Below are positions 1,893-64,000 of a DNA stretch of 64,000 nucleotides, in pieces. Positions within the stretch are counted from its first letter, which is position 1. Each line of letters opens with the position of its first letter. Source of the DNA: Pocillopora damicornis. Lineage: Eukaryota. Below the pieces are notes generated by a model. That model was not told the DNA's origin and searched no databases. It saw only the letters and a list, made by a program, of their open reading frames with translations. The translations under genes were made by a program, and so were the position numbers. The stretch covers positions 248,001 through 312,000 of the forward strand of contig NW_020846470.1 in NCBI RefSeq assembly GCF_003704095.1, in the 5' to 3' direction.

Positions 1893-4800
1893 TCAGTTTC
1901 CACAGCATTTCCACAATGCCACCGTACTCCATTCATTATTGCCAGCGGCCATAATGTGTACGCCTGACGCGGAAACTAAATTGAGTCAAATGATCTGTGA
2001 TTGGTAAGAGTAACAAGTCAAAGAACGAGCAGAACACTTTTAAGAGGACGTTGGTAATTCTTGTTTCCATAAGAGCGCTGGATCGTCCGAATTAATCATT
2101 TCGAAAATTGGTTGCGAATTGGAACGATCCAGGCGCTCATATGGAAGCAGGCATTGGATTTGTTCATCATTTCGTGGGTATTCGTATAACTTGGGAAAGA
2201 TAGGCTTAATTTTGTAAAGCAGTATCTTATTTTCTGTAAATTGAATGACATTCTCGTTAACTTAGTTTTCCTTAATGGGAGGCTAGGAAAACAGAACACA
2301 GGAGAGGCTTCAAAGTTGTGAAACGTGGTCAAAAAATGAGGAGACATCTATATGACGTGGTATATTAAGCTGCATTTAGACTGGCGGGGTTTGATCTCAA
2401 TGAATAACCAAAGATACGATTTTTCCGAGGGAAAAGGTTTGGGGAATTATGCTCTACTCGAATGTTATAAATGCTTTTTCATGCACTGCGTCGAGTATTA
2501 ATATGCTAAAACTACCAACCTCCCCACTTCTTTCCACTCGATGAAGTCGCGGACCAAAATGAACTGGACGTGGCAGTTACCATGTTCTCTGGTATCCCTG
2601 TGCTCATTATCAGGGATGTCTCGTTCTTTAAATTATAAAAGTACTGGGAGGAAATAACCTTCCAGGTCACACCGTCATTGGTGCTTCGGTGAAAGTTCAT
2701 TTTATGGTCTACTCCAAAGAGCGCTGCATTTGTAGGGTCGAAAGCAATGATACTGACGATGGATTCATCAAGACCTAGTAAATTACATATAAGGAGTTTT
2801 AGTTGGCTCAGTCAAAAAGCCACAATATTTTGCACCACTATTCAAACGATTGATTCTGCTCAATGAGTGCAACACTGACCCAACATTGAACATCTATTGT
2901 CTGGTTCGGAGAGCAAGTGTAATTTTATTTTTTACTCGGATCTCGATATTCCAAGGGACGAGTTCGAGAGAAACATTTTAACACGAGCATTCCCTGAATC
3001 ATGTTCCCTAGAAGGTCTGCATCTTTTTCTTTTTACTGCTGAATGGAAAAACGTTACAATTTTTGTGATTTCGCTCCTGACTTTGTTTGTCCACGAAAAA
3101 TTTCACCTCCGCCAAACCATGCTCTCATCACGTTTTCTCCATATAAAAAATAAAAGAAAAAGATAAACCAAATGGAACTGAGTTAAAAGTAACCAAGGCG
3201 AGGTGATCGCTAATTACTCAGTTATAGTCTAATTTATCAGTAATGAAGACCTTGAGTGTAACAAAAGGACTTCTTACACACCCATGGCTAAGTCGTTTAG
3301 TGACCGCCTGGCCTCTCTTGAATTGACAGGTACTCTGCCGGGGATTTTATATTTGACAAGAACATCAAAATTCAATGTTCCAGTGCGCTAACCGTTCCAG
3401 TGTGCTAACCATTGCTCTCCCTGATAGCTTAACATTACCTGTCCAATCCATTCCGTCACTCGAGAAGAAACAGCTGCTCTCTGATCTAGCAAACAAGAGA
3501 ATTAATTTGATAACTCATAGAATGAGAACTTCTTCAAAGAGATGTACTCTACCTATTGAAAATCACTTTTTACTCACTTTTGCTCAGTGTACATGCAGAC
3601 ATAAAACCGTCCGGAGTCTGGGTCCAACAGTACGGCCCTCCGAGAGTATTCGTGGACACCTGCCGATAAAAAACATGTTCGACTAAGGATTGTTTCTTTT
3701 AAGAATTGTGAATCCAGCAGGGTCTGAACAGTCAACTGATAACAGGTTAGGGTTAATGTTGTGCTAGGGGAGGGGTAGGTGGGCTGATAATTTGTATGTT
3801 GAAATTAGGGTGTGAAGGTTCACATACCCCCAAACGGAGGCAACGGTTCAGCCATGCAGCCATACAGCTCAGCTCGCATTACTTTAAGAACTGGAGCGCT
3901 GGTGGGAATGAAACGCACATAGCGCGCCGTGAATGGCTCAGATAATTTCACCAGAATCGGATTTTTAGCTTCTTGGCCATTTTTTGGACCATTCAGCTCC
4001 TGCAACAGAAAACGACGAGAATTAGATTGCATGCGGATGTTACATGGCCACACTGAGGTTCAAACTCTTTCCTCAGGTGCTGATGGTGTCTCTGACGAAA
4101 ATTGTCTCTGACGAAAATAGTCTCTGCGAACGCGTAAAGGGATATAGGACCCAGACAATATGTTATGTTGATTGAATACAACTTGAAAATCAGAATCAAG
4201 GACAAGAGTCGCCATAACACATTCGTCATATTTGGAACATCAGCAAAAAGGCCGAATTCCTGTCGTTTCCCTCTTCAGTGTGTTTTTATCCAGCGTTGTT
4301 AGGGACATGGTTATATTTTAAGTACGAGGGAGTTGCGCTCCTTAGTTTCGTTGTGGATTTATTTGTTTGGTTGATTGTTGTTGCTTTTATTCTGAAGCCG
4401 TCTATCAAGGTGGTCCGGTTTTCCATCTTCCTCAAATAAGAACAGTCTAATTCAGATCAGAATTTGAATAGCCACATACAATTCATTTCATTTCGGACCT
4501 ACACGCACACTTTTTAACTGCGAATATTCCCATTTCCAACCCTCTACTTACCAGAATTTTCTTACCCCCTAAAATGTGCGACTCCATTCTTGTAACTCTA
4601 TCGAAAATGTAACCCTATTGTGGTCAATCCAGTCGTGAAAATGCGAACCCATTCAGCGGTACATCCCCATTAGCCCATAACTAGGAAGTAAACCCCCTCC
4701 CCCCACGTGGGATTTTTTTGTCAACTGATTAGCTATATCGTGAGGATTAGAATCTTGAAAAATGAATTCGATAATTTGGTTCCCGTTTAAATTTGAAAGG

Positions 4801-7800
4801 TCGTTTTATCTTTCTATATCGTCTTTGTGAAAAGGAATCAGATCGTCAGAAATTTTCAACTTTACCTTAACGATTCCATTTTCTGGATAATCTAACCACT
4901 CAATACTGTTGTTACTGAACTTCAGCTGAAAACGTGTTACAAAGAACGAACTTGCCCCCTGCGTCGCCACTCGAGTCACCTTCCGCAATGAGCCAAAGTC
5001 GACCTGAAGGGGGGGGGAGAAGTGAATTGTTAACATACTCCTTGAAACTGCCAAGTGAAGTAAAACGAAATGTTTTGAGGAAAGGTAAAATTCTATGCCA
5101 GACATCGACATTTCACGACTGAGTTGTCATTGGCTTGTTGTGATATGCTCTTTTTACTGGTTAGCCGCTGCGATTTTCTATATTCAGTAGAACTAGGTGT
5201 GATTAGAATCTGATTTCTCCTTACAGTATCACCCCTGAGTTGCGCATAAAGGTCACGAGAATAAAGGAAATGATCAACCACTAAAGGAGCTCTTGATTGT
5301 TTAACGAATTCTCCTTGTCAGCACTTTAGAAAATGTATAGAGATCAGAATGGAGAATTTGCATACTGATTATAGTTTGTAAAGTGTGAAGCTTAATCAAA
5401 AGGCGCTCCCCTTATGCCTCACCCCTTTGTATGAGGGTCTCAATGGGGTGATGGCTTTTACGGCTATCGGTTAAAATTTTGGCCAATTTCCGGCTAACGG
5501 TTAACACCTTTCCATTGTTTCCACCAGACATATTTTTTACGGTTAACTTTTTTTACGACTAACGGTTAAAATTTGTCAATTTTTACTTCTAACGGCTAAA
5601 TATTTTGGCCGTTTTACGGCTAACGGTTAACCCCATTGAGACCCTCTTGTATCATGCCATTGCGTCATGTAGTCCGCCCAGCAGGAAATAGGTGTCAACA
5701 GCACAATATTTCTTGGACAAATGACATGTTTAGGTGATTTCCGATCTCACCATATAAACGTATAAAATGATCACAAAAAGCACAAGAACTGTTATGTTGT
5801 TATAGTCATTTCGATCTTCATTGCTAATTGATGGCTTTGGTATGTTTCTCATCTCAATCTACCCTAACATTGTAAAAACAGGTCTAGAATGCTAAACAAA
5901 CCCTGTTGTAATCTACTACACCTGTAGATAATCCAGTTGCCCCAGTGACGCTTGCCAGCCGTAGGGAAATCCAGGGACGTTCTTGTTCAGGCGAATATCA
6001 GTAGGATTTGACACTGTTTGGGAAGTGTCCACACTATGACTTACACCTTCATCTGGGATATACCCAGACTCCAAACCAAGGGGGTCGATGCAATTTTCTG
6101 TAAGAAAGGCAATGATAACGAGGTAGTGGGCTCTGCTGTTACATCAGGTCTTGCAGAATGCCGTTGGACCAAGAGAGTATCAAATTAGGAGACTACCAGA
6201 TCGTGGAAGCTTAAAACCTAATTCAGTATTGCCTGAACAAACTTACCAGGAGCGCCTTCAATGGGACAGCCGAACACTTCAAATCTCATGCAAACAAGCT
6301 TCTGCCAAGCAAGCGGCCTTATGCGGATGCTGTGCGCCTCAATTTCATTTTTCAGGTGGTGAGAAACTGAGGTGGAACTGTCGAAATTCCCAGGGAACTC
6401 CTAAATGGAAAACAATTCAAAGCATATCCATACTCAAAAAGAAAACGACTGATCTAGTTTTGTCGTTTATAATTGAGAGAGTAAAAAGAAAAACGTTCTT
6501 GTGGCTTTTAAAGTGGAGCTCTATACAGCCCTTTGCCCTGGCGTTCAAAGAGAGGATAATACCAGACAATGGATAAATCGCTTTCTAATGGATAAAAGTA
6601 AACAAAACGTATTGCAATTAACACTGGATAGAGAGCTATCCAGTTGTCAACCCTTGATAACTGAGAGTTATTAGCTTTGGTGAGAGAGTTACCAGCGCTA
6701 TCGATCCTTCGAACAACTGTGGCCTAAAGTTTTTTCGAATATTTCGACATCCATGCATAAGTTGATAACGATTTCATAACCACCAGATAAGTTCGTGAAT
6801 GAAATCAATCGAGTTCTAGGGGTATTTTGAATGAGTAAGCTCGAGTAAACTTTGCAAGGGACTTAAACAATCGCCCAAACCCATAAGGCCTGTACAATTT
6901 TCTAGCCTTTCAAAAAATTCCCAGGGGCTTATTTCGAATTAAACGAAACGTCATTTAAGAACTTGTTAATGTCATACATCCAAGTTAACTTTTGTAGCCT
7001 CGATTTCTACCCTCTGCGCTCCTTTGTCATATTTGAAGCACTCTGCGCAAATGGACATAATGAGATTTACCGATGTAAATGCACTTTACGCATACGTTGT
7101 CCTCTTAAAACTAAACGAAGACGAGTCTTTTCTAACCTTATCAAAGCCATTTTCCGTGTAATTATACCATTCCATATCGTTATTGCTGAACTGAATTAGA
7201 TATCTCTTGACCCAGTGCTGTTTCTGGCTTCTGCCGTATGTTTCAATTCGTGTCACGCGTGTCTTCTTGGTGAAATCAATCTGAATATATTGCTGGTCAT
7301 TTGTGATGAAGGCACACCACGCATCGTTGTCTCCGCCTAAACCCGAAAGAAAAGTGCATATAATTGAAACACATAATTTTCTCTCCAAATCTTACTTAGT
7401 CATTTGGTGCAAAAGACTTGATTATCCTTCGATGGACAATTGTCTAAAACGATGTTACTAGAAAAGAACACGATGTGATATCAATGATACTATTTCTAGC
7501 GATGCTTCAATACCACAACTCAGCGGTGATACATTCATCTTATACACCCTAACATCACCTAATATTCTCGCTCCCCATGTTATGGAAGAGCTGTTTAGTG
7601 GTGATCAACTCCTTTATTCTCGTAACTTTTATGTGTGAATTTAAGGGTGATATCTTAAAGAGAAATTAGATGCTTGTCACTCTTAGGGGTCAAAGGGCAA
7701 AAATCCGACTCGATATTGTATTTATTATAGCGGAGCTCGCAGAGCGTAGCCCCATAATTATACAAAATGGTAGTAGTAACCCATCAAGCCGAAAAAAAAT

Positions 7801-10800
7801 TTGGACATATGACCGTACGACCGTACGACCGTACAAGGTGCTTCTTTTAACATGCGTGGTCAACTGTACCGCGGGCACGCCAACGCCACGGCTTTTTCCA
7901 GTAGTCCAGTGGTCAGTGCACTGGGCTCCGAGTCGGACGACCCGGGTTCTAGTCCTGGCCGGGGAAAGGCGTTGTGCCCTTGAGACGTACGGGAAAAAAA
8001 TACGAGCTCCGCTTTTAGGCTTGGTTAAATCTATATATTACGCATGATGTAATACAGTAGGTAACAATGGTTTGGTCCGCATACCTGGCCTGGCTTTGTA
8101 GGGCTGCAGATATGAGTATGTAGAAGAGGCTGTCAGTTGATAATCTTTGATTTTACCTGACGCCATTCCTAAAGCGGATTCACACCCTGAAAGAAATTTG
8201 TTCTATTTTTATCCTATTTATCCGGTGTCAAAGAAATTTAGAAATATATTGGGTTTTTCACCGACACAACCTTAGCTGATGCTTACCTTTTTTAAAACAA
8301 ATATGTTCATTTGAATGCGAAATTTATTCTGGACTGCAATAGTTTTCTTAGCTACGCGTTGTGATTGGGTTAGAGAGCTCACCCCACACCTTCCCCCCCT
8401 TCGATCCGATACAAAGCTAAAACCAATGGCGACTCGGTCGTCTGCGTTTTTCCTCGCTTCAGACAGTTTGCTTCGTTTAACTCTTGAGTCTTTTTAACTA
8501 GGTTCTACCATTACTTTGAATAATTGTTGTGATATCTATGGTTTGGTTTTACGTAACTTATGTGAAACATAATTACAGGTGTTTCCCGATATCCTATCAA
8601 CAATTGATTTGTATTTTCCTGTAAAACACAATTTGGAAAAACTCTATTTAACCAGTATCTTTTTGCCTCATCATTATCAAAATTAATTCACTGATAGAAC
8701 AACAGCTGGGCTGGGTTGTTCAAAGCTGGGTTTATATAACCCAGGGTTAGTGTGAAATCGGATTTCAGCTCTGGAAGCCTTAAAGGAAAATTCAGGAGAA
8801 TTCTTTTTGTCAACAATTTGATGATTAGATGCTCCATATAGAGTAGAGGAAAATGATCCCAAAAAGGCTATCGAACAAAGAAGTATAGAAACCCAGATTA
8901 AAATTTAACCCTGGGTTAGCGCTAATCGGCTTTCGAAAAACTGGGCCCTGATGTCCAAATAAGGATACACAATATTGTCGTGATTTTGGTGAAATATTTT
9001 AAATCCATTCGCACCGGGTATATTGATCTCTATGGTAACTATTTGAGGGGGACTGGAGAAAGAGGCTCCTTTGGTTATCACGTGACCGTCGTCTGTGTAA
9101 TCCTTGTAGTATAGCAAGCCTACTGGGGTTACAATATGATGTCGTCCATTTTTTAGGGAGAAGTCGTTGTCAAATATCACAGTGAAGTTAATTTTGACTT
9201 CTTCCGCCCACAAAATTCGGTCAATCTGAAACAAGAACAGAGAACCCAAGGTGAAGTCTCAATTAAGTGTTTTAAGCTGAATTGGTAAAGTAGGCCTCTT
9301 TCGTTCTAAACTTTAACTCCATGGCCCATTTTGTACGATGACATCAATTTGAGAGTATCAAAATTCCCTGAGTGTTGTTACTTCCGCCTGAATATTACTG
9401 TTACGTCCCTAGGTCAGGATCAAGACCCGATTCCGAGATCTACCATATTAAGGTCTGTGCCCTCACACTGCCTTTTATGGAACTTTAGCCCATAGAAAGA
9501 CGAAATTATCTCTTGCCGTTACATCACTCGTTGAAAGATGTAACACACAAGAGCGAGTTGGGTCAAAACCACATGGCAGCTCAAAACTTACTTTTAAAGA
9601 TTGTTACGCGTCTAACTCAAGTGATTAACTAATGGTGAAGCTCTCTGTCAGCTTACCAAGAAGGTCACACTGTCATCTTTCTGCTGAACTTGAAGAGAGC
9701 CCATCATTAAAGAAGAGGCCACTTTTTTAAACTTGACAAATGGCGTCAGCATCCAGGTCACATGAACGCCACGTGCGTCTGACCGTGACTCAGCGGAGTG
9801 CTTTACTATGAAAGTATATCCATATTCAGATCTGGGGACCGAAACAAACTTCCGTTTCTGTTATGAATGCAAATTATTAAAAAAGAACTGCGGTTAACAA
9901 GAACGGCAGTGGTAGAGACAAAGCCACGAAGCTAACTCAGTGAAAGGCAGAGTTAATTTCAGAGATTATTTTGAATGAATTACAACAGTTCTACACCCTG
10001 ACAATATCACTCATGAATAACTATTGATTATTAATTGATTATTAAACAAATTTTCCGTGTTAGCATTTTAGGAAATGTACAGTGTGGAGAATATACATAC
10101 TGATGTTAGGGTGTAAACGGATAAAGGTTTTTCGATTTCATGGTGGGAATGACATAAGTTCCAGAAAACTTATAGACACACTAGGTACGTTTAAAGAGTA
10201 AATCATGATATGTAATTTTTGGGAAGTTATCGTCTGCCGTAACAAACGTCAAGGGTACTACGGATTGACTCAAGTCCAGACTCTTTCTTGCACTTCTCGG
10301 TTCATCAAAGAAGGGCGACCTAGGTACTTAGCTTTTAAATTAACCCTGTGTAACTCATCCACTTACCCGTGTTTCATGGCCATACTGTTGTTCAGGTTGT
10401 GACCGATGGTCATCTGTAGTGCAGGTTCAACCTAAAAACGAAGATACATAAATTTACTTCATGCTCATGGAATATAACTGAGTCAGATGTTAAAAAGCTT
10501 CACTGCCAAATTTATTTTTTCGCTCTACGGATCTTGCAGACTAGTACTTCGAAGGGATTTTAAGTTTGTCTGTTCGGTCAATCATCTTCATGGCGTCGCA
10601 TCTGTATGTACAAAACGCAACAGCGGAATTCTCCAGTCGGCCTCACACTGCAAGGCTCTTCTGACGTGACGTGGGAAAACTGGGCTGAGAATGATTCGAG
10701 AATGTCCCGAAAAAGAATTGTAGTAGAATGCATCCCTTAATGGTAATTATCATATGAACACCTCTCAAGGCATAAGGGATGTATGGGAGTTGAAAAAAAA

Positions 10801-11894
10801 AAGAGAAAGAATAACAAACAATGAAATAATATCAGCACAACAAGACTGGTTGACCCTTTGATCCGTAAGAGTGACTAGCATCTAATTTCTCCTTACAGTA
10901 TCACCCCTGAATCAAACATTATTGTCATGAGAATAAAGGAAATGATCACCAACCGAAAAGCTCTCGATTAATTAACAAATTCTCCTTGTCAGTACGGTAG
11001 GAAATGTCTAAAGAACGGTATAGGGAATATACATACCGATATCAGTGTGGAAAGGGTTAAGAGTACTCTAAAAATCATACAAGAAACACGCAAGCGACCT
11101 ACATTGTTTGACCTTCGTTGTATTCGATGATCCTCAGAACAAACTGCAACATAAAAATTTCATACAAGATATAAACAGCGGCGCGTGTAGTATACAGTGA
11201 AGGCTTTTGTACAAATCCGCAATTGTTAAAAAAAAATCGCGCTAAAATGCTGCTGTACGAAAGAATTTTAAGTTCCCTTCTTGTACTTTCTGTAGATTGA
11301 TGAGGCTGACATGAACGTAGACGGTTGATTAAAACAAGCTAGAGTATATTTGTAGAGGAAAGACTACATTCCTTGATTTATTATTCACCTTCAGTCTGTC
11401 ATAACATGCAAGTGTGTGTATAGACAAACTGAGGCTTTCGTTCTTAAATTATTCGTCACAACTAAAACAATAACGGCACAAAGGAGAGAAACGTAGAATT
11501 GAATGTGGAAAGTAATATTTACTTGCCACACAAGAACGTGATCAAATGCATGGTCCATCGAAGAAGGCGCGCAGTTACTAGTGACTACTATTCCAAAAAT
11601 TGCCGAAAAAAATAAAGATATGGGTTTCTTTTCACTATTTTATACGATTAAGGCTCATGAAAATTAATAAAGTATCGATTTTGAAGCGCGTTCATCATGT
11701 TGAAACTCGGTGATCACCCTTTTTCACTTTTGAACCTGCCTTGTTATCACACTTGGGTGTTTCCAGTGAAAATCTTCTAAACTTACATGGAGCTTTTTGT
11801 ATATGTTACTAAATGCCTTTAAAGAGTCACATTTACCTGAGTGAAAAAGATTTAGCCAAAAGAAAATAAAACAAATTGCTTTAGCTTCTTTCAT
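1893..11894 (-). CDS. Secreted double F5/8 type C (discoidin) domain protein with N-terminal DUF11/Ig-like and C-terminal Asp-box domain, paralog A (15 exons, ~652 aa)
   Basis: Phase-consistent GT-AG exons: 11837-11894, 11103-11143, 10367-10431, 9657-9831, 9015-9225, 8085-8186, 7137-7336, 6247-6400, 5922-6097, 4866-5003, 3828-3999, 3578-3659, 3439-3485, 2520-2774, 1893-1975 (1959 nt). Signal peptide MKEAKAICFIFFWLNLFHS. Discoidin motifs GCESALGMASG..DAWCA..YIQIDF..MRFEVFGC and CIDPLGLESG..YLQVDFG..ARYVRFIP..MRAELYGC. Ends WKCCGN*. The first two exons are the least certain. Confidence 0.85.
5433..5646. mobile_element. MITE with perfect 16-bp TIRs and 6-bp TSD
   Basis: GAGGGTCTCAATGGGG ... CCCCATTGAGACCCTC is flanked by TTGTAT at 5427-5432 and 5647-5652. 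Internal repeats of TACGGCTAACGGTTAA. Confidence 0.85.
7712..8040 (+). mobile_element. Non-autonomous element with subterminal inverted repeats (Helentron/HINE-like) carrying a tRNA-derived SINE head
   Basis: AGCGGAGCTCG (~7728) and CGAGCTCCGCT (~8003) form an inverted pair. Internal (GACCGTAC)3. Pol III A-box TAGTCCAGTGG and B-box GGTTCTAGTCC at ~7900-7955. Confidence 0.55.
8705..8950. mobile_element. MITE with degenerate TIRs and AACCC(A/T)GGGTT palindromes
   Basis: GGGCTGGGTTGTTCAAAGC ... GCTTTCGAAAAACTGGGCCC ends. It accounts for the non-homologous tail of ORF 8905-9249. An element with similar ends lies at ~6527-6725. Confidence 0.6.
10850..11060. mobile_element. TTAA-flanked ~210-bp MITE (piggyBac-like ends), family A
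   Basis: TTGACCCTTT...AAAGGGTTAA ends. Related copies at ~5200-5390, 7540-7695, 10040-10125, 55390-55602 (reverse) and 57230-57380. Confidence 0.75.
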
Positions 11895-13903
11895 GGCTTC
11901 TTCATTCGTCTTTCTTCAACGTTCCCTCTACTTCAAGATGTTTACCGATAAACAATGAAATATTCACCGAGTCTTAAACTTAGAGATAGCATATCATTGT
12001 TTTCACCTAGATTTAACAATGAAATTGAAAGTAGTGGTGGTAATTGATAAAGTACTTTATAATTGATAACAGCATGTCTGAGGAATGTTTTCGTGTCGAC
12101 GATGTTAATGTACGTAAATTCAAGCGCCTCGCTGTGTGAGAGATGATTCCTTGTAACTAAATATATTTCTGTCTATTCCGTTAACCTGTAAGTAATAAGA
12201 AGGTCGATAGTACGGAAAGAAAACTGTAGAAATGATGATGTATGAAGCACACTTAAGTTTTAAGAATTCAGCAGCCAATTATCCAAAATGCATGTCAGCC
12301 AGAAGTGCTAATAAGAGTTGATAATAGTTTTTAAATCTTCAACATCAACGAAACTGTACAAAGTAAATGGATGGAGGAGATTAAAAATTAACTAAGTACT
12401 CCATTGATAACTGTATCAGTCGGACCAATGGAAAAACCCCGTAATAAAATCCTACTTTATCTCGAAAATTCGCGAGGATAATGCAACAGATAGAGGAAAC
12501 AAATCCAACCTCCTCATCAATAAACAATTATAAAATAAAGAAGTAACTGCGATGAGTAAACACTTCATTGCCGCCTACATCAACACAACTGGAAGAAGAT
12601 AAAGTGTGATTTGAAACGGTCTTATGGATGATGGGAATAGCATGTTTCCAAAAGGTGTAATGTAGGGTGTTGATAAACTCATTTTTTTCTTACACCCCAT
12701 TCACACCATTAAAACATGTTTAATTAGAACACGTAGGTTTAACTGAATGAAAATCCGAAAATTTGAAATAGAAACTAAATTTTCCATAAGATGCAAGTGG
12801 TCATTAACTTTTATTTTCATTGCGCCAAATTTGAAGTCGAAAAACACCGATCAAAGCAGCTTTTAGAAAGAAAATATTTTTTTTAACAAAAAAGCTTTAA
12901 AACATGTGTAAGTTTTGGTGTGAATAGGGTATTAGTCTGAATATCGAATAGTTGGATATTCAGTAGTTAGTTAGGAAAAAAAGGGTGATATTTCTTAGTC
13001 AGTGGCTGGAATGTGAAGAAACAAAAGAAAAAACGGATGCTGATGAAAGACCTTAAGAAGCATAGCGAATTGTGAGAACTATTTCCTTTGCATGATGTTA
13101 ACTTGACAGAACCTGAAAGCAGGGCGAAATAAGAAATGGGGAACAAGACTATAGACGAAAAACTTAGTAAGAAAATAACGCGAAATTCAACTCAGAGAGA
13201 CCGTTTAAATAAAGGAATATGCAACCCAAACACGGCAGGGAACGTAAAATATCATCATCAACAACACAACAACATTGATTCATATGCAACAATTTTATTT
13301 CTGATCTTAGCAGTCATCTGATCATTACCGCAAGTCGTACTTAAATACAAAACTCCTTATTAATTTCAAACTAAGCAGAGGTTTTCTCACCAAAATTCAA
13401 GAAATTTACCTGCAGTTTGCTCCCACCTGTATGTCAGGTCCTTCATCTTCCCGAGGAGCAAACTAGGGGATACTAAGTTTTATCAACAAAACTGTCTTGG
13501 AAGTTTCAAAATTGAAGTAAAAATTTACAGCAAATCTGGGTTTAGTTAACTGTGTTGTTAACAACCCAGAAATGATCTCTCGAAACTACTAAGAGTTTAT
13601 AAACCATAAGGCTAGTGTGAGACCACAAGAAATATTGAAAAGAAAGACGCGTCTTCTATGTTTGTTACAGTTCGATATCCCTTAGCCCTTTTCCTAGTAT
13701 TGTTTACCAAATATATTGAATTCTTAGTTGTAACATGTCCCAACAAAACTGTAATCTACCGCGAAAATGTTTATTTGATATTTTCCCCATAAGAGTCCCA
13801 TTTTCTAACTTTATGAGTTATATGCAAACTTATACATGAGTTCTATATGTGATGAAGGTGCACTATTTACAAGCTTCATAGCTGTCAACACCCATCCATC
13901 TCA

Positions 13904-16900
13904 TTACTGGCCGCAACATTTCCATGTGCCCACCAGGCTCCACGCGTCACTTCCAGCAGTCATCGCATGAATTCCACGCCCGGATACTGGAAAACAAAAT
14001 AAAGGAAAAGCGTACACTTTTCAGGGGAGGGCATGCACAAGGAACAAGAGGCAACCAACCGAAACCGGATCAACAGGATCCACTGGGGACCGCTTATTAT
14101 TTATCATCTGAGGGGTTAGAGGATTGGGTTGTGTCACCTGATCCCACCTCACTGGCATTCAACTGGCAGTCAATTTGCTCAAGTCCCCCCTTAAACTCTG
14201 TTGGCGAAGACTGATCCCTCTTCCACTCCCTCTGAAAACCATGTGATCTTCCCCAAACTCCCCCTTCTCCCACACAACATAACAAATAATGACTGGCCCT
14301 TCTTGCATCAGTAATATAAAATTTTTTCTCAAACCACTCACCTCCCCAGGTAGTCCCAGTAGAGTCAGCGAGCGCTGTCAGGTCACTCGTGGGCATCTCA
14401 GACACAAGATTTTCTGGAAGAGCTTTCGCTTTAATCAGCTGGGATTCTGTCAGTGTCTTGTTAAAGTAACCGTCCGTGATCTGTCGCCAGGATTCACCCG
14501 AGTCACAACTGCGATGGAAGTTCATTCTTCGGTCCAAACCATATATTTCCTTCAAGGAGGGATTTGAAGCAGCTACACTGATAATGAAAGGCTGAACAGC
14601 TAAAAAAAAGATGCAGTTATAAGCTTGGAGCTGATTAATCTTTATACTAGACCACGTTCGGGTTGTATAGATGTGAGTCAGGTACAAAATGTTGAAGCTT
14701 CGAGAAAATCCCGTGAAAGGAGACAAGTTCAGATATTACTATTTTGAAGTGCTTTTCTTTATGAGATCCATTGCACCAGTAAAATCATCGGAAGAAACTA
14801 AACCAGGACTTCAAGCACCAACATAATCCTTCGCATGGCAAAATCGTCTTTCTATGTGCGTTACGCTTGAATCAATGATCGGTGGAAGGGTGTTGGGAGG
14901 CTAATTATAAACTTGAGGGGGGAGAAGGCACTAGAGTTATACTCAAATAGAACAGTCATGTTTACTTACCAATCCATTCCACACCATCTGTGGTTGAAAA
15001 GCAGCTGCTTTCAGCTCTAGGATAAATTTGTTGGATAAGTAAAATTTTCTGCTGTTTGAACGGTCAAGAACAAGACAGCAGACCGGTTCCGATTTTCAAG
15101 TTCAATTGCGTTTTGTGAGTCTCATATTGGTCAGTTGTTATAGGCGATATGAAACCCCAACTGAAAGGTTACTATCAAAAGCTCGAAAGAAATAACAAAA
15201 AAAATCTGCGGTATCGATACTCACGATTCACTTGTGTACATGCAGGCATAAAACCTGTCAGTGTCGGGATCCAACAGGAAGGACCGTCGAGCGTACAAAG
15301 AGACGCCTGAAGAGCAACAGCAAAAGGGTTTAGATTCAGTCTTAATTTGATACGGTGCCTGCACGAAAAACGATACTCTTCATTTGCACTTGTCAGGGAC
15401 AGGTCATTTATTGTCTGGGAGGGGAACCTCTTCGGAGGATTTGTTTGTGTTACAATAAATTTAACCTGATCCCCTCATAAGGCTCTGTAGTGTTCTAGTG
15501 AACCCCACCCTCTTCATGGGTAGTCCGCTTTCCACAGTCCNNNNNNNNNNNNNNNNNNNNNNNNNNNNNNNNNNNNNNNNNNNNNNNNNNNNNNNNNNNN
15601 NNNNNNNNNNNNNNNNNNNNNNNNNNNNNNNNNNNNNNNNNNNNNNNNNNNNNNNNNNNNNNNNNNNNNNNNNNNNNNNNNNNNNNNNNNNNNNNNNNNN
15701 NNNNNNNNNCGACGAATGCTACTTGACTCAACAGCATCACAACAAAACTGATCAACCGGTTTGCGTGAGCCAGACCGAAAAAATTAAACTTAAAATTAAC
15801 TCTTTGTTTCACATTGATGATGGCTTTTGCTCAGGTTATTGAATATTAGTCACAAGGTCACTGACAACATTCCTCTCCAGAAAATTGGACGATCGCTCAA
15901 ACTATACGATCGATTGTTTCTCACGACTTCGAAACATTTTTTGCAAATATTTTGATATCACAATTTCTAAATTTACTCTACTTACCAGCGTAAGGTGGAA
16001 GTTCTTCAGCGAAACATCCGTAAACTTCTGCTCTCATAGCCATATTCTTAGTGCCAGGGATGATTCGTAGGTAACGGGCCACGAACGGTTCGGCGAGCTT
16101 GGCAAGGACTGCGTAAACGGCCTCTTTACTGCTTTTTGGTCCATTTAAAGCCTTAATCACAATCAAAGATTTGACTTAAACTTTGATTTGTTTCTAGTCT
16201 CTTAAATTTCTAGCTCCCAGTTTTTTTTGCTATGTTTTTTATTCGCTTTACCGGGGAGACAAGAGCAATGGGGGGTGACAAGAACGGAAGAAGAGTGACT
16301 GTCTCTCCTTCTTCTACCATCTAACTTATCCTTTTTCCACACCTGATTTCAGAGAGGCCTTTCTTATTTGCGGATCCCTTTTGCTTTTTTGTGGTATAAT
16401 GAAGCTCTGCTAAGTAAAGAATTGAATTGATGAGAATTCACCCACAAAGTACGCTCGAATGACATTGAATATTCAACTCTTTTTCAATTATTCATTTAGA
16501 ATACTTTGATACGTTCTCGTGGTTCATCTAAAAACCACACCCATACCTGATTTGAGCAGTCAATGATCAAAATCGATTTGAGGCGACAGATACGCGTATG
16601 GCTTATATAGGGGAGAAGCCCTTCTCCAGGAAGCGCTAGGGTAAATGTAGTTCAGAAAAAAAAGAATTATTTAAATTAAATTGACCTGTGATAGCCTGTA
16701 GCGCTAATTTGCTCTCCTTGGCGAAACCTTCGTATTTCGGGCTGGGTCCATAAAAACATTATGTGTCAGACAAAGTAACTCTAGTGAAATTTTACATTGG
16801 ATTAAGACTCATGCCGATGTGTAGCTTCGCACCCATAGGCAGCAAATGTCTTATTCCCTTCATCCTCCGTTGTGTTGTCTAGTCATATGTGGGCCTCTTG

Positions 16901-19900
16901 GCTCCTAAGACACCCGTAACAAAAAAACAAGTTCTAATGCCACGAGATCTGGTAAACCCTTCAAACGCAATTTAAATTTCACTTACTTTAATCTTCCCTT
17001 TCTCATGATAATCCATCCACGTTATACCATCCAAACTGTATTGAAGTTGGTACGACGAAACATAAAAGAATGAGAGAGTTCCTCCCATTGTAGACATTCT
17101 CGTCACTCTGCGCAGCGAGCCGAAGTCTATCTGCAAGTAGTCAGGAGGCACTTGAGCGGCTCGTGCAGACCACCCATACGGGAAGTTACCCACGTCCTTG
17201 TGAAGACGGATGAACTCTGGCTTAGAAGGATTACTGGAAGGAAGGCTGTGAGTCAGGGCTGCGTCTGTAATTTCACCAGATTCAAGACCCAGCGGAGAGA
17301 TGCAGCTTGCTGGAGAAGAAGAAAGAAATGATCATCGACAGGTGACATATTTCTGAGCATAGATCTTCTGCTTATTTACACAATGTCGTGATAAGCATTG
17401 ATAAATGAGAGAAAGGAAGAATGTTAATTTTTCCTTGCTTCCGTCAAAAAGGCTTTATCGTCATAGGTGAGCATTTTCAGGCATGCGCGTTAGTTCGTAA
17501 CACCGCGCCGTGCGTTTCAGAACCCGGAAAGGAGCAAGTTTCGTCATGTTCTGTATTTTTTTTCTCCCTTTTTAGTTTTTTGTCAAATACGTATGTTTCT
17601 AGTTAAACACTCAATCAAGCCACACTGGTCTGCAGTATTCCGTTCTTATCTGCAAATTCTCACTGGCGCCAGAACAAAGATGTTGACAAGTATTGACACC
17701 TAACCTACGGGCGCAATTTGAACTAGAAGCCCGTTTAAGTAACTCAATTACAGATTATCTAACACTTTGAATTAACTGTACCACATTCGGGCAGAGCCTC
17801 CCTACACAAGCCATTAAGAATTACCCCGGATGACGATCAGTCCCAATCTCTCCTCTTTTCCTCTGCAATTCGAGCCAATTGGCCATCAAAATGTCTGATT
17901 TTGATTTTTAAAATAAACGATAATATATCGTACTCTATCAATCGTACCTGGAGAACCTGGAATGTCACAGCCATAAAACTCGAACCTGATGCAGATCAGC
18001 TCCTGAAAAGCCCACGGGCGAATTCGAATACTATTAGCCTCGATTGGGTGGCGGAGTTTATGGACGATCATTTCTCGGTCTTCCGCTCTTTGAGGGCCTT
18101 TGAAGATCTACATGAAGACAGTAAGGGTGTAATCGTTAGGTTTAAATGGCAGAACACCTTCTGGATCTCTTGATATACCTAAAGGACCGCTACAAAGCCG
18201 CTTCACGTGATCTCAATTAGATCTCGATTGTGCTAAAATGACCACAAGAAATAGAGAGAGCTTGAGGGGTTCTTTAGATTTCCGACGCCACTGACAGTAA
18301 AGTGACAGATTTTAAGGCGTTCTAGATGTAAGAAGAAAACCTAAGAACAATTGTAAGGAGATATACGTGGAGAGGCAAACTTTGTCCTTCATCATACAAA
18401 TTTCCGCAATTTCAATTTTTATAATTTTTGTTTTGACTAATTTGTTGTCAGACCTCTAGATCTCACTTTAAACGATCACGAAAACAGCCTATTAGCACAA
18501 AAGTCATCGATGAACAAAATGGTCTTAGAAAACATAATATATCAAATCGCGAAAACTCCAACCACTTGAACCCCAAAATGTATGCCCTACCTTAACTTGA
18601 CCGTTTTCAAGGTAATCATTCCACGTGTTGTCATCATCACTGAACTGCAGGAAGTATTCAGACACCCAGTGATCTTTGGTAATCCGCCGCATGGTTCCCA
18701 CGCGTGTCACTCGTGTCTTGAGTAGGAAGTCCACTTGAATAAACTGATCTTTATCCTCCTTGTCAGTGCACCAAGCGTCTTTGGCTGTAAATTGTAATCA
18801 CATTTAATACCAAGATAAACCCCCAAGAGAGACATGCATCACATTTCTCTTTACAGCATCACCACTGAATCGAGGTTGTAAGAAAAACGAAGTTAATAAA
18901 CATGAAGAAATAACGCGCGTCTGATTGGCGAGAGACATGCATCAAATTTTTCTTTACAGCATCACCACTGAATCAAGGTTGTAAGAAAAACGAAGTTTAT
19001 TTACATAAAGAAATAACGCGCGTCTGACCGGCTGAAAACGAGTGCATTCTTCATGTAACACGGATGCAAAGTTGTAACACGAGTGCAAATAACAAAAATC
19101 AGGCGCGGCTGCAAAAATTGGGGAAAACTGGAGACAAGAATGATACAACTAGAAGTTCCCTCAATACAGTGCTTAGACCATCTTCAGGCATGTGTCAAGT
19201 GTCATGTTATCGCAATGATGACCACATCTGCACATGCGTGGTGAGTATTCTTCCGCGCCACTGTCAATAAAAAAGTTTTTCTACTTACTCTCTCGCGCTC
19301 GCGATGGTTGAGATTCATCATAACTTGAGGAAGCTGTAATCTGATAGTCATTGATTCTTCCACTTTTCATTCCCAATGGCTGTGAACAGCCTAAAAAAAA
19401 ATAAACGTGAGTTGAGACGGAGTCGTTAATCGTGGCCGGACTGATTATAAAATAACGACAATAAGAAGAAAAGAAAAGAAGTATCACTTCGAAAAAACTG
19501 AGTTTTATGTGTGGTGCTATAAGCTTTCAAATAGCGCTTTGAAAAAAAGAAAAATATTTACCCGCTGTTATCTTTCTGGGAAGAATTTATCTCTCAAAAA
19601 ATGTCGATCAAAAGTTAGTTGCGCATGAGTCCGTAACTACTGAATGTAAAACTTACAATTAGCTTCCTGTAGTAAACACCCAAAAGAGACTGAGGAGCCT
19701 ATGTAAGCTGTTAGATGTAAAGGAGACTATAAGTTGACTCAACATGAAGTATTTGGCATGTCTTATCGCGCTGCGATAATGCACCGTACATACTGTCACG
19801 CATTCGACTCTGACTGTATCCTACTTATCGACCGGTCATTAATTCAGGGGGGGAAGGGTCGGAGGATAGCAAGGACTGATCCCTCCTCCGTTCACCCTGA

Positions 19901-22771
19901 AAACTACATAATCCCCCACAAAGTCCTGCACCCCCCTCCTGGTGACTGACTCTTACCTGACAGTTCGACGCCAAAGGTAACTTTACCGAGAGGGTGGTTG
20001 TGCACGTTCTTCTTGGTAACTACACCGTTATTCTCTTGATAGTCATCGTAGTAGAGAAGTTGAACTGGCGTCACAATGTCATAATATTTCGGCTTTAGGA
20101 TCATCTCTGGGTCAAACTGAACTTTGAAGGAGACTGTGGCTTTCAATCCCCAGCTAAGAGTGTCGATCTTAAAATAGGAGATGTAAGAGCAACCCATTAG
20201 ACTTAAATCAGACTAATTGCCATGGTGGGACACCAAAACTACAGCTCATGTACGCCGAGTTAAAAAAAATAATTCAATTATCGCATGAAAAAAATTGAAT
20301 GGCGTTCGATAGAAGCTTCAATTCTTTCTACCTGTGAAAAAGACCTTCAGATGGTGGAAGTTACTCGTATGATGTTTACAGTGGCAGATTGTGTCAGATA
20401 CTTTTCTAATTCCGTTGTCAAGAAAAGGGAATTTATAGAATAGAAACAAAATCTCAGTAAGAGGACCAAAAAAAAAAGCATTTCAAGCGGTTCTAACTGT
20501 AACGTTTTATCATTCATCTCGTCGAATACCTAAATTTTTCATTTGGCGACAAATTAACTTAAATTAACTGAACCTGTTTAATCCAAGAGATTATAAATTC
20601 CTGGTTTAATCTAAATGACTTCACTTAGATGTGTTACTATTGTCGACTCGGGCCTTTAGGTAGCTCGAACCCCACGCTAAGTTGGATCAAAAATTTTAGT
20701 TTTCCTTGGATTTCCCTTAAATATTTTCTGCAGTTTCTTCGATAGGGATTCGAGACCTCGATAACTGTCGAAAATCTCGCTAACGTGAAGTCCCTTTTTA
20801 CCTTTATGTCACTCTTTCTAATTACCACCGACTTTTCAATAAAGTACCTTTTAGGTCTTTAGTTTCCTTCGTTAGCAAAGTACCTCATGTTTCATACCTT
20901 TCTTCATAATGAACCTGAATAATACTTATTTTTTGATCAAGGAAAGTCCGATAGATAAAAGTTTTCTCTGTAGTTTTCAGTCATTTCAATGATTTCGTCC
21001 CATGCTGCGATAACTTGAACCTATAATGATTCACTTGACTGTTCGTTATTATATGCACAACAAAAAATAATTTGAACCTACCTACAAAAAACCTTCTGTA
21101 CAATGAATCCCTTCACACTTGACATTTACATTTGCACAAAAAAATAAATCCTCTAGAGGATTTGAAAGTGTGCTTCATTACCTTCAAGGTAACACTATTG
21201 TCTTTTTGTGTGACTTGCGGAGGATTTATACCAAGCGAAATGTCTACCAAATGACGGTACTTGATGTAAGGAGCTAGCATCCAGGTCACGTGAATACCTT
21301 TGGCGTCGGCTAATGAGTCGCCTGTGTGTTTAAGGGTGGTAACATATCCAAAATGGTGGCTATAGCAACAAAACGAATAATCATTGCATAAACAATTTCC
21401 TCTCTTATTCAGTTGACTATCTACATGGTCTGTGCATATGATGGGACAGAGAGATCATGAACAACTAATGGTCTCTTACACAAAGTTTATTTTCAGGTAA
21501 GTCATTCCCTAACCCTTCAAAAAACTACAAGTGGACGACAATCAAGCATTTATTTTCCTCTTCGAAAATTATCCATCAGTTTTTCTCTTTTTTTTCAATG
21601 TTTGTCAGACTTTCAATTTATTAGAAACGAAATGACGGAGTCAAACCAGTCAACGAAAAAAGTTATGTATGAAATACATTTCATCAAAAAAAGCCTCGCC
21701 GAGTTTTATTTCATTGCGGGAAAATAAGAGCAGGCTATGTTTCATTGGCAGCCAGCGTGAGAGCCGCCATACGGCAGACGTCCATCAAGAGGAAGTTATC
21801 GTCTAACGTCATAAGAGTACATATCGAATAGTCTTGATTAAATCCGACAAGAACTTACCCATGGTTCATTTCCTCCGTCACGTTCACAAAATCTGTCCTC
21901 ATGATTAAATCAGGACCTGCAGCTTGTGATGTGTGCACTGCAAAGAAAATGATAGAATATAACGCTCCAGTGTAGTTAAACTTCACTCTTTTTGCACTAC
22001 TTGTATTAAGTGACCCGATCAGTTTAACAGCAGAAAGTTTTTGTGATGAAGTGTGAACTAAAACTTATTAACGAAATTTTTGTCAGCAACCTCGTCACTC
22101 CTTTCCAAATGATTAAGATACGGACAAAAAGTTTCGGAAAAGAGTTTTGGATTTTACTGTTGCAATATTCGAGGAATTGCTTCAAGGAACGGGGCAAATT
22201 AAACTCCAGTGCGGAAAATGCGTCAGTGACGTGTTGGCTCGGTGTATAAGCAATTAATTAAGCTCAGCCGGCTTTAGAGCCCTATCATCTTCTCACGATA
22301 GATTTTGTTTTAGACATGGTTTCCATGGAACGTTTTTCTTAGCTTCATCAACCGTTTTTAGACAATGTTCAATCTTCGAATGACACGGAGATTTTCAAAA
22401 TAAATTGGCACGTTCTGTGATGAAAAGAGTGAATGCATAAGTTCGGCATTTCTTCAACCTGCAACGACGCAATGTGCGGAAGGTAACGTTCATTCATCCG
22501 GAAAAAGGCTTGCTCTTGATACCAAGTTACCTTGACACATCTGAAGTATCATCTCCTTTGATACAACCCTCAGTAAATTCACAGCCTTACTCAACAGTAA
22601 TATATTAGTTATAGGTAGATTTTCATTGAGTTTTCAGAGACTTTTCTAAAAGCTTCCTCGGTTTTGAACAAGTAGGACGAATTTTACCGGACAAGCAAAA
22701 TAAATCAACATCTTACCTTGAGCGCCTATTATCAAGCAGAATGCCAGTTGATACAATGATCTGGCAGACAT
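13904..22771 (-). CDS. Secreted double F5/8 type C (discoidin) domain protein, paralog B (13 exons, ~645 aa)
   Basis: Phase-consistent exons: 22717-22771, 21859-21937, 21182-21359, 19957-20167, 19289-19390, 18591-18784, 17948-18107, 16987-17309, 15986-16151, 15225-15306, 14970-15016, 14342-14599, 13904-13986 (1938 nt). Signal-like MSARSLYQLAFCLIIGAQVHTSQA. Motifs GCSQPLGMKSG..DAWCT..FIQVDF..IRFEFYGC and CISPLGLESG..YLQIDFG..MRAEVYGC. Ends WKCCGQ*. Exon sizes 211/102/82/47/83 are identical to paralog A. Confidence 0.88.
18828..19032 (+). repeat. Local ~104-bp tandem duplication in an intron of paralog B
   Basis: GAGACATGCATCA...GAAATAACGCGCGTCTGA occurs twice in tandem. Confidence 0.8.
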
Positions 22772-51600: not shown

Positions 51601-54600
51601 AAAGTATTTTTCCAAGGGTAAAAAAACGACAGAGAGGAAAAACTAAACCAAAAAGAGAAGAAAATTGAAATAAAAATATTGAAAAAATTCCAGCCATCAA
51701 TTTCAAGAAGTGGTAACCATGAAAAACACTTAATCACAAACCTGTTTGTCGAAAGTGATGACGTCAGAGAGGCGAGGAAATTCTGTTGCAGAAGACAGCT
51801 GTGAGATGTGATGAGACGGGGGTCTCTTGTCCGCTTCTTGTTGCCAGCACCACGCCATCAGGTCGAGCACAAACACTGGAGCTTTCTTATCCTACAAAAG
51901 GGTAAACCGTTCCCCATATAGATGCTCTTAATGTTACTGCGCATTTCGAAATTTGTTGTGAAACCAAAAACAATGTGATCACAATCACCAATCAGAATGA
52001 AGGCAAACGTTACAAGGAGCCTATAAAAACTTAAATTTAAGAACAAACAAGCGTCGAGAAAAGATAGTCACCAGAAGCGCGGGAAAACGAAAATTTCGAA
52101 TGGTATCAGTCTTGTATCTGATTGGTTGAGAAGGCGGCACGAATTTCAACGACCAATCACAAAGGGGAGGAAAGCTTAACCAACAAAATTCAGAAGCATT
52201 TCGATACTAAATTGAACTGGCTAATTCTGTCTACCCTAGTCGAGAACCAAAACCAAAGAGACCAGAATAACCAATCATAGCAAAGAAAATATCACCATGA
52301 GCCAATGAGAACTCAAAGTAAAAACAAGCAAACTGTCTGAAGCGCGGGAAAACGCGGATGACCAAGTCGCGATTTCTTTTAGTTTTGGTTCTGATTGGTT
52401 GAAAAAGTTGGGCGAGTTTCCTAGAACAATCACATCACGAAATAAAGCAAAACCGAAGCAACTTTGGATTACTTTCGAGATTCAATTAAAAATTGCTCTA
52501 ATAAACTAAGATGATTAAATACCTTGGTAGTAAGTGGCGGTCGATGACCCTCAACGATAAGCTGTTTGACCTGAGCTGGGTTGAGATCATTAAACGGCTG
52601 GTGCAGCGTGACTAGTTCATAAATGTACATTCCAAAGGAAAACGAGTCCACCTTATCCGTGTAAAGCTCCTTCCCGACGTACTTTTCGATCTCGGGGGCC
52701 ATAAAACCAGGAGTGCCTCCCAGTCCCTTCATTCCTGCTAGCGCCGCTGACCGGCTGATTCCATAGTCGGCCAGCTTTATAACGACTTGATGATGTGATA
52801 TGCCCGCACTGAGGGGGGCTGGAAACACCCACACCAAAATGTTCTCTGATTTGAGATCACGGTAAATGATGTGGTGGCGATGTAAATATTTAATAGCTGA
52901 AGCACACTAATGATGAAAATGAACATGCATTTTGTAATACTGAAAAACTTTATAAGGTGAAGGGAAACTTTTGAATTACAGTGAAGTTGTTTGAAGCAGG
53001 TTGAATACTGGTTAAGTAAATTGCGCGACAGCGGTTGAAACTAAAATTGTTAAAAAGCCCGTAAAGAAAAGACCCAAAAAATGAAGAAAATGCAATCGGA
53101 CCTATCAAATCTGGCTGTTTCAGGCGGATACGATAACACTTAAGGAGGAAAAAAATGTGATCTAATGTTATCAGATGAAAAAGAAACTTAAATTTCTCAA
53201 TGAGCTGTCCACGTCGGCTCTAAGAAAGGTTTCCACTGAATAAAAAACCGTACGAAAAAATTTGGGATGTGAGATATTGACCGCGTAACGCAGGGTGTTC
53301 GCTTCATGTGGGAATTGCATTCATAATTCTAGATAATGGGAGATGTCGTGGATGGTGTCTCATTTTCATGATTTTATTGACTATAATGGGGTTGCATTTT
53401 CAATAGAATTTCTAGAGTGGGTTCTATTTTCAAAAGAGTTACTAAAATAGGGTCGCACATTTTTGGGATTTTGGGGGTAAATCAATTATGGTAAGCAGGG
53501 ATTTACAAGTGGGAAGATTCATGATTAAAAAGTTGCTACCAACTAAGGTGGGATCTGTAATTTGCTAAAGAACAGACTACAATAGGCTAACGTCACATAC
53601 CCAACAAACATTGACTCAAATAACCCCCCCTTCTCCCGAATATATATCAGGTACTAGGTACCAGTCGCTTCGTGATATGGGAAACGGGGTACACTTTACA
53701 GGGGACGTTGGTACCTAGGCCCGTGAGAAGATATGAACGAAAATAAAAACTTCTAAGACTAAAATGTAATTAAATAAGTTTCAATTTGAAAATTATCTCG
53801 TTAATATTTGTACCTGCACAATACATTTCTGCATGACGAAAGCATTCAGCCTGACTCCAACTCTCTTATAATTAGCAAGAATTCCGTCCAAAGCCCCTTG
53901 CGGCGCAAACTCCAGAATCATGCTGAAAGGGTTTAGACAGTATCCTAACAACGACACGATGTTATTATGCTTCAAGGGAAGGAGAATGGACATCTCCTGA
54001 CGAACGGTCCTGTAAGAAATTCACAAATCAATCAATCAGTCAATCGATCGATAAATCAAGTAAGGAAGCAATCAGTTCAGCAATCAACGATCAAGATTAA
54101 GTTTGTCTGTTAGTCGCTAAGTCAGACAGTCAGCTAGTCAGTTAGTTTGCCATTCTATCGCTGATGGAGTCAGGGTGAGTCAGTCACTCAGGCAGTTACT
54201 TGGTTGGTCAGACTGTCAGCCAGTTAGGTCAATGAGTCAGCGCGTCAGTACGATAGCCACTCAGTCAGCTACGGAGAGTATACTCATTAGCCAGCCAAAA
54301 CTTTGGTCAGTCAGTGTCTCTAAGTTAGCAGTCACCGAGCCAGCGAGTCAGTCAGTCAGCCAGCTTTTTGTGTCAATAAGTAATAAGTAAGTCCATCAAG
54401 ATCAGTAACAGTGAACCTTAATTGTGCGGTACTATTCGTTGGAGGAAGGGGGAGGCACTTATAATTTGTTTTCACCTGAAGGACCAACAGCGTCCAGATC
54501 GATGTCAAAAATCGATTCAGGCGGTGATTTGGTCAGTCAGGAGGCCAATCAGTCAACTATGATTAGTCAGTTCGTCAAGCACTTGAAGGATCAGTGAGAC

Positions 54601-63982: not shown

Positions 63983-64000
63983 CTGTAAGATTTAAAGAGA

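Follow-up and report, generated by a model that had tools for sequence, protein, structure and literature searches.

Tandem F5/8C (discoidin) domains are known from lactadherin (MFG-E8) and EDIL3, from coagulation factors V and VIII and from the neuropilins, and discoidin domains also characterize the discoidin domain receptors (DDR). Propellers form a second group of described systems to which the locus reported here can be compared; according to PMC7734218, the propellers that occur in nature are built of between four and ten blades, and engineered pieces of three blades dimerise to six-blade rings. We analyzed a stretch of 64,000 nucleotides from the coral Pocillopora damicornis (contig NW_020846470.1 of assembly GCF_003704095.1, positions 248,001 to 312,000; from here on the window, with positions counted from its first letter), which contains two tandem genes, A and B. 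Both encode probably secreted proteins in which a pair of discoidin domains lies between an N domain and a C domain (the tail), neither of which has a Pfam model. A and B belong to no named discoidin family: they are not lactadherin, factor VIII or neuropilin. They represent a new form of secreted multi-domain discoidin protein with an unnamed ancient domain of unusual predicted fold.

Genes A and B are arranged head to tail on the minus strand, from position 22771 (ATG of A) to 1893 (end of the B stop codon). Gene A (ATG 22771, stop 13904) consists of 13 coding exons and encodes 645 residues without an internal stop, and gene B (ATG 11894, stop 1893) consists of 15 coding exons with an intact frame of 652 residues. 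All introns have GT-AG borders (12/12 in A and 14/14 in B, 26/26 in total). An earlier note on this DNA, made from its letters, had described two intact, strongly diverged paralogs sharing their exon structure. Intact they are, with exact coordinates and open frames. They are also diverged, but not extremely so, being 47% identical over 615 aligned residues (N 40%, first F5/8C 50%, second F5/8C 53%, C 44%). Intron positions and phases agree except for two extras in B, a 41-nt exon after the signal peptide and an intron within the second discoidin domain. In both genes we found the domain order of the earlier note: signal peptide, N (an Ig-like sandwich), 2 F5/8C domains and a C tail of approximately 155 residues. 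Pfam detected the 2 F5/8C domains and nothing else in 5/5 full-length orthologues, and NCBIfam had no match in the 3 two-discoidin proteins among the 7 scanned. The closest named relative of A is a Stylophora pistillata protein (77% identity to a database model that lacks some exons). Identity to a full-length, transcript-derived protein (P0004) is 83%, and coral A orthologues range from 62% to 83%. No additional family copy was found in the window or in the 20 kb past B.

The start codon and signal peptide of A (residues 1–18) are encoded by exon 1 (22717..22771, −), the joint of which (21937/22717) was present in RNA contigs from 2 of the 4 runs described below. Splice sites and frame place the predicted start and signal peptide of B in its exon 1 (11837..11894, −). 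The extra exon 2 of B (11103..11143, −) is predicted from sequence to encode a short pro-peptide with a basic furin-like site at its end; similar R-x-K/R-R sites were also found in acroporid and Nematostella relatives. The signal peptides were assigned by reading the sequence and not by a SignalP-type predictor. The maximum hydropathy over 19 residues was 1.18 in A and 1.45 in B, in both cases at the N-terminus, and never exceeded 1.16 downstream of it. This agrees with the earlier claim that A and B contain no transmembrane segment.

RNA evidence came from contigs of 4 runs from 4 studies, picked by gene A, and such contigs show presence only. All 12 introns of A were bridged by RNA contigs, every one in at least 2 runs, including the joints between the discoidin exons and the four tail exons and between the N-domain exons and the signal exon; contigs also spanned the N-gap at 15541-15709. 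A single contig of 1921 nt contains exons from the tail through the first exon, and in a 1024-nt contig from a different study the last exon is connected with the second discoidin domain. The terminal exons of A are thus joined to the discoidin exons, the point on which the earlier note had made its prediction depend. For gene B, among the contigs listed, at least 1 bridges exons 8 and 9 and another 2 map to exon 14 and to the last exon plus its 3′ flank, whereas most B exons are uncovered. This sparse cover says nothing on the expression of B because the runs were found with A. The B model is further supported by its intact frame together with B-type exons with the same borders in 3 metagenome contigs (L016–L018), which are 52% to 60% identical to B and 34% to 38% identical to A. 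The B-type tail exon in one of them (L018:1545-1797) is frameshifted, which may reflect a pseudogene or an assembly error. Some RNA contigs retain intron 12 or intron 1 of A, and a 212-aa frame runs through exon 12 of A into the flanking introns (14097-14735, −). The collection proteins P0001, P0002, P0006 and P0008 are such intron read-throughs and, as far as tested, not real isoforms. High-copy interspersed repeats occupy the introns of B (approximately 3730-3780, 5190-5650, 7690-8040, 8700-8950, 10080-10120 and 10850-11000) and are matched by hundreds to thousands of RNA contigs.

The range of the family was analyzed with a C-domain profile. Searching 1.84 billion representatives gave 478 matches at E ≤ 0.001, of which 150 were listed. 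Among these 150, 33 hold at least 70% of C, and the remaining 117 consist of short fragments and of long proteins with many repeats; the 5 of the 117 that were checked are BNR/Vps10-type propellers. On iteration a C profile drifted to multi-repeat BNR proteins by round 3, and it was replaced by a profile of 47 hand-picked animal-type rows. Near-complete C matches with at least 450 residues upstream numbered 17 among the 150 listed, and 15 of these carry N, with 0, 1, or 2 discoidin domains in between. N and C therefore form a constant frame into which discoidin domains are inserted in variable number, which the earlier note had missed. Names could be attached to 30 of the 478 matches, as clusters from Nematostella, Actinia, Porites, Orbicella, Paramuricea, Sanderia, Clytia, Lingula, Haliotis, Octopus, Nucella, Elysia, Owenia, Antedon and Branchiostoma. 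Vertebrates, insects and nematodes were absent from these 30 names, which does not demonstrate loss. The exact order of N, 2 discoidin domains and C was found in named cnidarians only (the anemone Nematostella, the octocoral Paramuricea, the jellyfish Sanderia and corals), and the frame of N and C also occurs in molluscs, an annelid, a brachiopod, a crinoid and amphioxus. The suggestion of a lineage-restricted family, in its narrow sense, was therefore not upheld. Word-index protein searches returned only stony-coral relatives (12, 8, and 6 matches) and would wrongly have suggested a coral-only family.

Bilaterian members are 1500 to 1900 residues long, carry EGF, cadherin, lectin or pentraxin domains and have additional sandwich domains lined up before N. 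In 6 of them (P0170, P0107, P0055, P0069, P0113 and P0114) a second unnamed sandwich repeat without a Pfam model forms a long run before N. The modules fused to the frame are extracellular adhesion and recognition domains (EGF, cadherin, Ig, CUB, C-type lectin and pentraxin); the amphioxus member has three C-type lectin domains and a pentraxin domain. In some proteins C is internal and followed by EGF or CUB domains. The P. damicornis genome itself contains at least 3 family loci according to three own-genome searches, in which the weak matches L008 and L010 were dismissed as chance. The third gene (G000:C2150:279558-282698, +; loci L003–L005), found with one tail exon, encodes an I-set Ig domain followed by N and C without a discoidin insert. 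Over 150 residues of the tail its identity to A is 31%, and its N and C exons have the same intron phases. Exons further upstream match by eye the Cys-containing N-terminal part of P0178, a full-length relative of this gene with a signal-like start. Two domains without Pfam models have thus stayed linked in animals ranging from corals and jellyfish to molluscs, a crinoid and amphioxus. The family is uncharacterised, as had been supposed: searches of the full-text literature, which included the accessions of the Nematostella relatives and had most subscription papers outside their coverage, found no description of the architecture or the tail.

This distribution bears on the proposal that A and B are proteins of the coral skeletal organic matrix dedicated to calcification. 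Secreted coral matrix proteins often have F5/8C domains, and some bilaterian holders of the frame form a shell or skeleton. However, the identical architecture occurs in an anemone and a jellyfish, the A and B sequences contain no acidic region, and a paper on the skeletal proteome of Acropora (PMC4890752) does not use the terms "discoidin", "FA58C" or "lactadherin" in its main text. A skeleton-specific role, which the earlier note had entertained, is very unlikely because non-calcifying cnidarians retain the architecture.

The discoidin pair is encoded by exons 5–7 (17948..19390, −; 19390-19289, 18784-18591 and 18107-17948) and 8–9 (15986..17309, −; 17309-16987 and 16151-15986) of A, and by exons 6–8 (6247..8186, −; 8186-8085, 7336-7137 and 6400-6247, the joint of exons 8 and 9 being the one found in an RNA contig) and 9–11 (3828..6097, −; 6097-5922, 5003-4866 and 3999-3828) of B. 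Matches to solved structures were limited to this pair (factor VIII, E 3e-35, residues 173-486 of 646; neuropilin-1, E 5e-33), and the tandem is 30% to 35% alike to the C1-C2 domains of factor VIII. The restriction of sequence matches to the pair explains the database names of orthologues, which are called "Coagulation factor VIII", "Neuropilin-2", "lactadherin" and "lactadherin-like". This is the mislabelling by automated pipelines that had been anticipated, and the flanking domains of lactadherin, the neuropilins and factors V and VIII are indeed missing according to Pfam. Recognizing the family does away with a false label that recurs on coral proteins ("coagulation factor VIII", "neuropilin", "lactadherin") and that feeds venom, immunity and matrisome inventories. 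The first F5/8C domain contains an extra Cys pair (C214 and C312 in A) that is invariant in 12/12 two-discoidin members and absent from factors V and VIII; it may correspond to the second disulfide of the DDR receptors, at the top of the collagen-binding trench. In the second F5/8C domain, an aromatic-Pro-x-Gly-Trp loop is family-typical (11/12 rows). The hydrophobic pair of spike 1 of the factor VIII C2 domain aligns to polar residues, and the spike 3 region retains aromatics, with spike positions assigned as in factor VIII C2. In lactadherin and EDIL3, hydrophobic C2 spikes of this kind bind phosphatidylserine.

The likeness to factor VIII C1-C2 would suit a soluble innate-immune lectin or opsonin that recognizes microbes, symbionts or dying cells in the manner of lactadherin, as would the three C-type lectin domains and pentraxin of the amphioxus member and the presence of lectins among the propeller matches of C (see below). 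Moreover, "lactadherin" genes are among the families diversified in corals, with a suggested role in phagocytosis, in PMC6208414, where they are not shown to be A or B. We nevertheless consider an opsonin unlikely: A and B lack EGF domains and an Arg-Gly-Asp (RGD) motif, the spike-1 pair is replaced by polar residues, and the own-genome searches found just the three loci (a lower bound), unlike expanded immune lectin families.

The N domain is encoded by exons 2–4 of A (residues ~25-175; 19957..21937, −; 21937-21859, 21359-21182 and 20167-19957), as supported by RNA joints and an orthologue model, and by exons 3–5 of B (9015..10431, −; 10431-10367, 9831-9657 and 9225-9015), as supported by the 40% identity to the N domain of A. 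Folding the N domain of P0004 with 21 rows produced a confident β-sandwich (predicted local distance difference test, pLDDT, 96). Its best fold matches were the SpaD pilin (Z 12.4, root-mean-square deviation (rmsd) 3.2, 134 aligned residues), integrin alphaM (Z 12.1, rmsd 2.6, 127 aligned) and the alpha-2-macroglobulin receptor-binding domain (Z 11.7, rmsd 3.2, 123 aligned), tied within 1. The CLIPPER domain of a fibrillar adhesin, cohesins, pilin D2 and integrin alpha leg domains were tied with them (Z 11 to 12.4). N is thus predicted to fold as an Ig-like sandwich of the pilin-D2/integrin-calf/alpha-2-macroglobulin class, loosely DUF11-like. The original DUF11-like label is appropriate for the fold class and for the language-model neighbours of N, which are DUF11 proteins (0.90-0.91), but denotes a resemblance and not a family match: 0/21 N rows matched the DUF11 profile (PF01345/TIGR01451) at E ≤ 1, and no Pfam model matched at cut-off. 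A related sandwich in Nematostella P0065, itself matched by the N profile, scored 22.8 bits against a cut-off of 24.6 and 16.5 against 24. The N-domain sequence profile found nothing below E 0.6 among PDB chains. In the sequence alignment of N there was no conserved Lys/Asn pair for an isopeptide bond, which in CnaA-type pilin domains is formed by a Lys-Asn/Asp triad, and no column conserved at 90% or more.

The C domain is encoded by exons 10–13 of A (13904..15306, −; 15306-15225, 15016-14970, 14599-14342 and 13986-13904; RNA joints and orthologue model) and exons 12–15 of B (1893..3659, −; 3659-3578, 3485-3439, 2774-2520 and 1975-1893; supported by the metagenomic B-type exons), and in both proteins ends in Trp-Lys-Cys-Cys. 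It has no Pfam model, and its sequence profile gave nothing below E 0.6 against PDB chains. Folding the Stylophora orthologue's C domain with 29 rows produced a model of 156 residues with ten strands and one helix (pLDDT 91.6, predicted template modelling (pTM) score 0.87), and the five single-chain models had pLDDT values of 90 to 92. The predicted strands can be read as two Asp-box blades, the helix with a long linker, and a third blade. The first two blades repeat each other (HHalign E 5.7e-5, probability 66%). Asp-box-like motifs (S/T-x-D-x-G-x-x-W) occur twice in A and, as one strict and one degenerate copy, in B, and 4/29 C rows weakly matched the BNR model. The Asp-box label that had been given to the tail is consistent with these motifs and the blade topology, but it describes a resemblance and not a family match. 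Foldseek found no whole-domain match among solved and viral structures (best template modelling (TM) score 0.30-0.42, rmsd 10-13), which does not prove a new fold; its local matches were propellers including GH74 and sialidase (whole-domain TM ~0.3, rmsd 12-13). With a wide aligner the best match was 8wt1 (Z 8.8, rmsd 4.2, 140 aligned, chain residues 25-404), and lectin propellers also matched (6gxs, Z 7.0; 4csd, Z 5.9). In the best matches, the model covers the opening blades of a complete propeller together with its last one. From this we infer that blade 3 may pack on blade 1 in an arc.

The local matches to GH74 and sialidase propellers could also point to a secreted glycosidase with carbohydrate-binding modules, since Asp-boxes and F5/8C modules co-occur in such enzymes. 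This explanation is scarcely credible: C, with its approximately 155 residues, is far below a six- or seven-blade catalytic ring, the matches have the low whole-domain TM and high rmsd just given, and only two Cys and one Trp are conserved at 90% or more in the 29 rows of the C alignment.

Tentatively, and with slightly less than even confidence, we propose that A and B are secreted, membrane-free glycoproteins that act as multivalent cross-linkers of the extracellular matrix or of a cell-surface coat. The signal peptide would export the chain, and B-type chains would lose their short pro-peptide at the furin-like site. The discoidin pair may act as a binding head for a polyanionic glycan, collagen or a lipid surface, and N as a rigid spacer, several such sandwiches being stacked as a stalk in the long relatives. 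C domains would then pair edge to edge, completing a propeller, and the terminal Cys-Cys would lock chains by disulfides, producing multivalent binding heads. Self-association of C is suggested by its arc-like fold, by the four-to-ten-blade rule and the designed three-blade dimers cited above, and by the link of Cys-Cys to the terminal position: 27/41 rows with C at the chain end have it and 0/5 rows with internal C do, although four of these five rows come from one clade and count as approximately one event. Low copy number together with the 62% to 83% identity of coral A orthologues fits a structural role. A bolder version, which we regard as rather doubtful, is that C is a natural three-blade propeller half that pairs with a second chain as a disulfide-locked six-blade ring. 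It would define an unrecognised extracellular family from the cnidarian–bilaterian ancestor, with a fixed chassis of Ig stalk and half-propeller and swappable discoidin, Ig, EGF, cadherin or lectin domains. If the tail completes a propeller by pairing, it would provide a natural case of an evolutionary step that for propellers has been demonstrated mostly with designed proteins, and multivalent matrix proteins would have a new mode of assembly.

Several observations weigh against these proposals. The Z score of 8.8 for C is barely over the typical best chance level of that search (7 to 8), blade 3 is not a sequence repeat of blades 1 and 2, and 14/41 terminal C domains lack the Cys-Cys. NV2.19396 and NV2.19400, Nematostella "coagulation factor-like" genes that are possible orthologues of unconfirmed identity, have no abundance values in a mesoglea table, which would not speak for bulk mesoglea. 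In addition, the confident single-chain C model could equally represent a self-contained domain in which helix and linker cover the open edge. On that basis C could be a monomeric ligand-binding domain with its terminal cysteines paired within the chain, and the protein a monomeric bridge able to bind at either end. In favour of this alternative, each of the five single-chain models is confident, and C also occurs internally, followed by EGF or CUB domains. Even so, we judge it improbable, given that the blades of C match arcs of larger rings and that Cys-Cys follows the terminal position of C.

The terminal cysteines could instead polymerise a component of the stinging capsule (wall, tubule or coat). 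A 671-aa "lactadherin-like" protein has been reported from the nematocyst proteome of the myxozoan Ceratonova shasta, and a related entry has discoidin matches over approximately 53% of its length, compared with 48% here (PMC8684318); the putative link to the family is one of length and label only. NV2.19396 appears in a table of the cnidocyte-expressed matrisome, with low values shared with some neurons. However, in what is accessible of the respective sources, the seven conserved nematocyst-specific proteins contain no discoidin domain (PMC6134521) and a search of a nematocyst-proteomics supplement for accessions of the Nematostella relatives had no match (PMC8773148). The frame of N and C is, moreover, present in animals without cnidocytes. 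We therefore regard a capsule component as similarly improbable, and prefer the cross-linker proposal. In the Nematostella matrisome, NvCoag-like 3 and 6, which are putative family members, are nearby genes in one orthogroup marked Cnidaria-specific, and the former has low values in some neurons and cnidocytes. The Nematostella orthologues make function directly testable.

Nematostella has two such genes with consecutive accessions, on contigs of the same length, which suggests a tandem pair. The model of the second (P0018, EDO44680) contains two near-identical N domains, and its second discoidin domain is almost identical to that of its neighbour EDO44679; it looks like a chimeric model or a local misassembly. 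In full-length trees of 15 rows, B grouped with the second Nematostella gene (Shimodaira–Hasegawa-like approximate likelihood ratio test (SH-aLRT) 96, bootstrap 94). The same grouping was obtained on the C domain (93/80; 41 rows, with five fragments or duplicates left out) and from a row set that included two noisy metagenome frames and the octocoral but lacked four of the earlier rows (89/83). The first Nematostella gene fell outside A and B and not with A. The simplest reading of these sequences is that the split of A and B would be older than that of corals and anemones. One Paramuricea gene model begins with a MAPEG (MGST3-like) gene that is fused to a family member, and in the window an MGST3-like first exon lies upstream of A on the same strand (41891-42013, −). 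This points to old microsynteny between a MAPEG gene and a family member. A real MAPEG fusion in this genome was rejected because the long A contig, to judge by its length, extends only approximately 66 nt beyond the ATG and because the MAPEG part is missing from two sister models at the Paramuricea locus. The last two MGST3-like exons of the window lie on the opposite strand (33573-34111, +) and represent either a second gene or a locally inverted assembly piece. Elsewhere in the window, a single-exon open reading frame of approximately 81 residues (42320-42565, +) has a signal-like start, a Ser/Thr/Pro/Ala-rich middle, a hydrophobic end and no Pfam match, and to judge by its composition resembles a small glycosylphosphatidylinositol-anchored mucin-type protein. 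A large multi-exon protein kinase gene occupies approximately 48600 to 64000 (−), with a Pkinase match (E 5e-23) at 52469-52906; by eye we take it to be LRRK/ROCO-like.

Compared with known systems, N shares a predicted Ig-like sandwich with Gram-positive pilin D2 (CnaA-type), integrin alpha calf, alpha-2-macroglobulin receptor-binding and DUF11 domains, at an identity of just 8% to 16%. The C domain has Asp-box motifs and blade topology in common with BNR/Asp-box propellers (YCF48, GH74, Vps10 and sialidases) and with oligomeric lectin propellers (Ralstonia RSL), in which self-association closes the ring and sugars are bound between blades. It differs from them in having approximately three blades per chain and not four or more, in the helix and extended linker that separate blade 2 from blade 3, in a conserved blade-1 disulfide pair and in the terminal Cys-Cys. 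The DDR have a transmembrane helix and a kinase domain that are absent here. The neuropilins have a similar b1-b2-like discoidin tandem, but the family lacks their CUB and MAM domains and transmembrane segment. Factors V and VIII provide the best match to a solved structure, for the discoidin pair only, and the family has neither their cupredoxin A domains nor the C2 spike-1 hydrophobic pair. Like lactadherin and EDIL3, A and B are probably secreted, have no membrane anchor and contain tandem F5/8C domains with the canonical disulfide. In contrast to them, the family contains no EGF domain (Pfam, 5/5 orthologues) and A and B no RGD, the discoidin pair is internal, between an Ig-like sandwich and an unnamed tail, and the first F5/8C domain carries the extra Cys pair.

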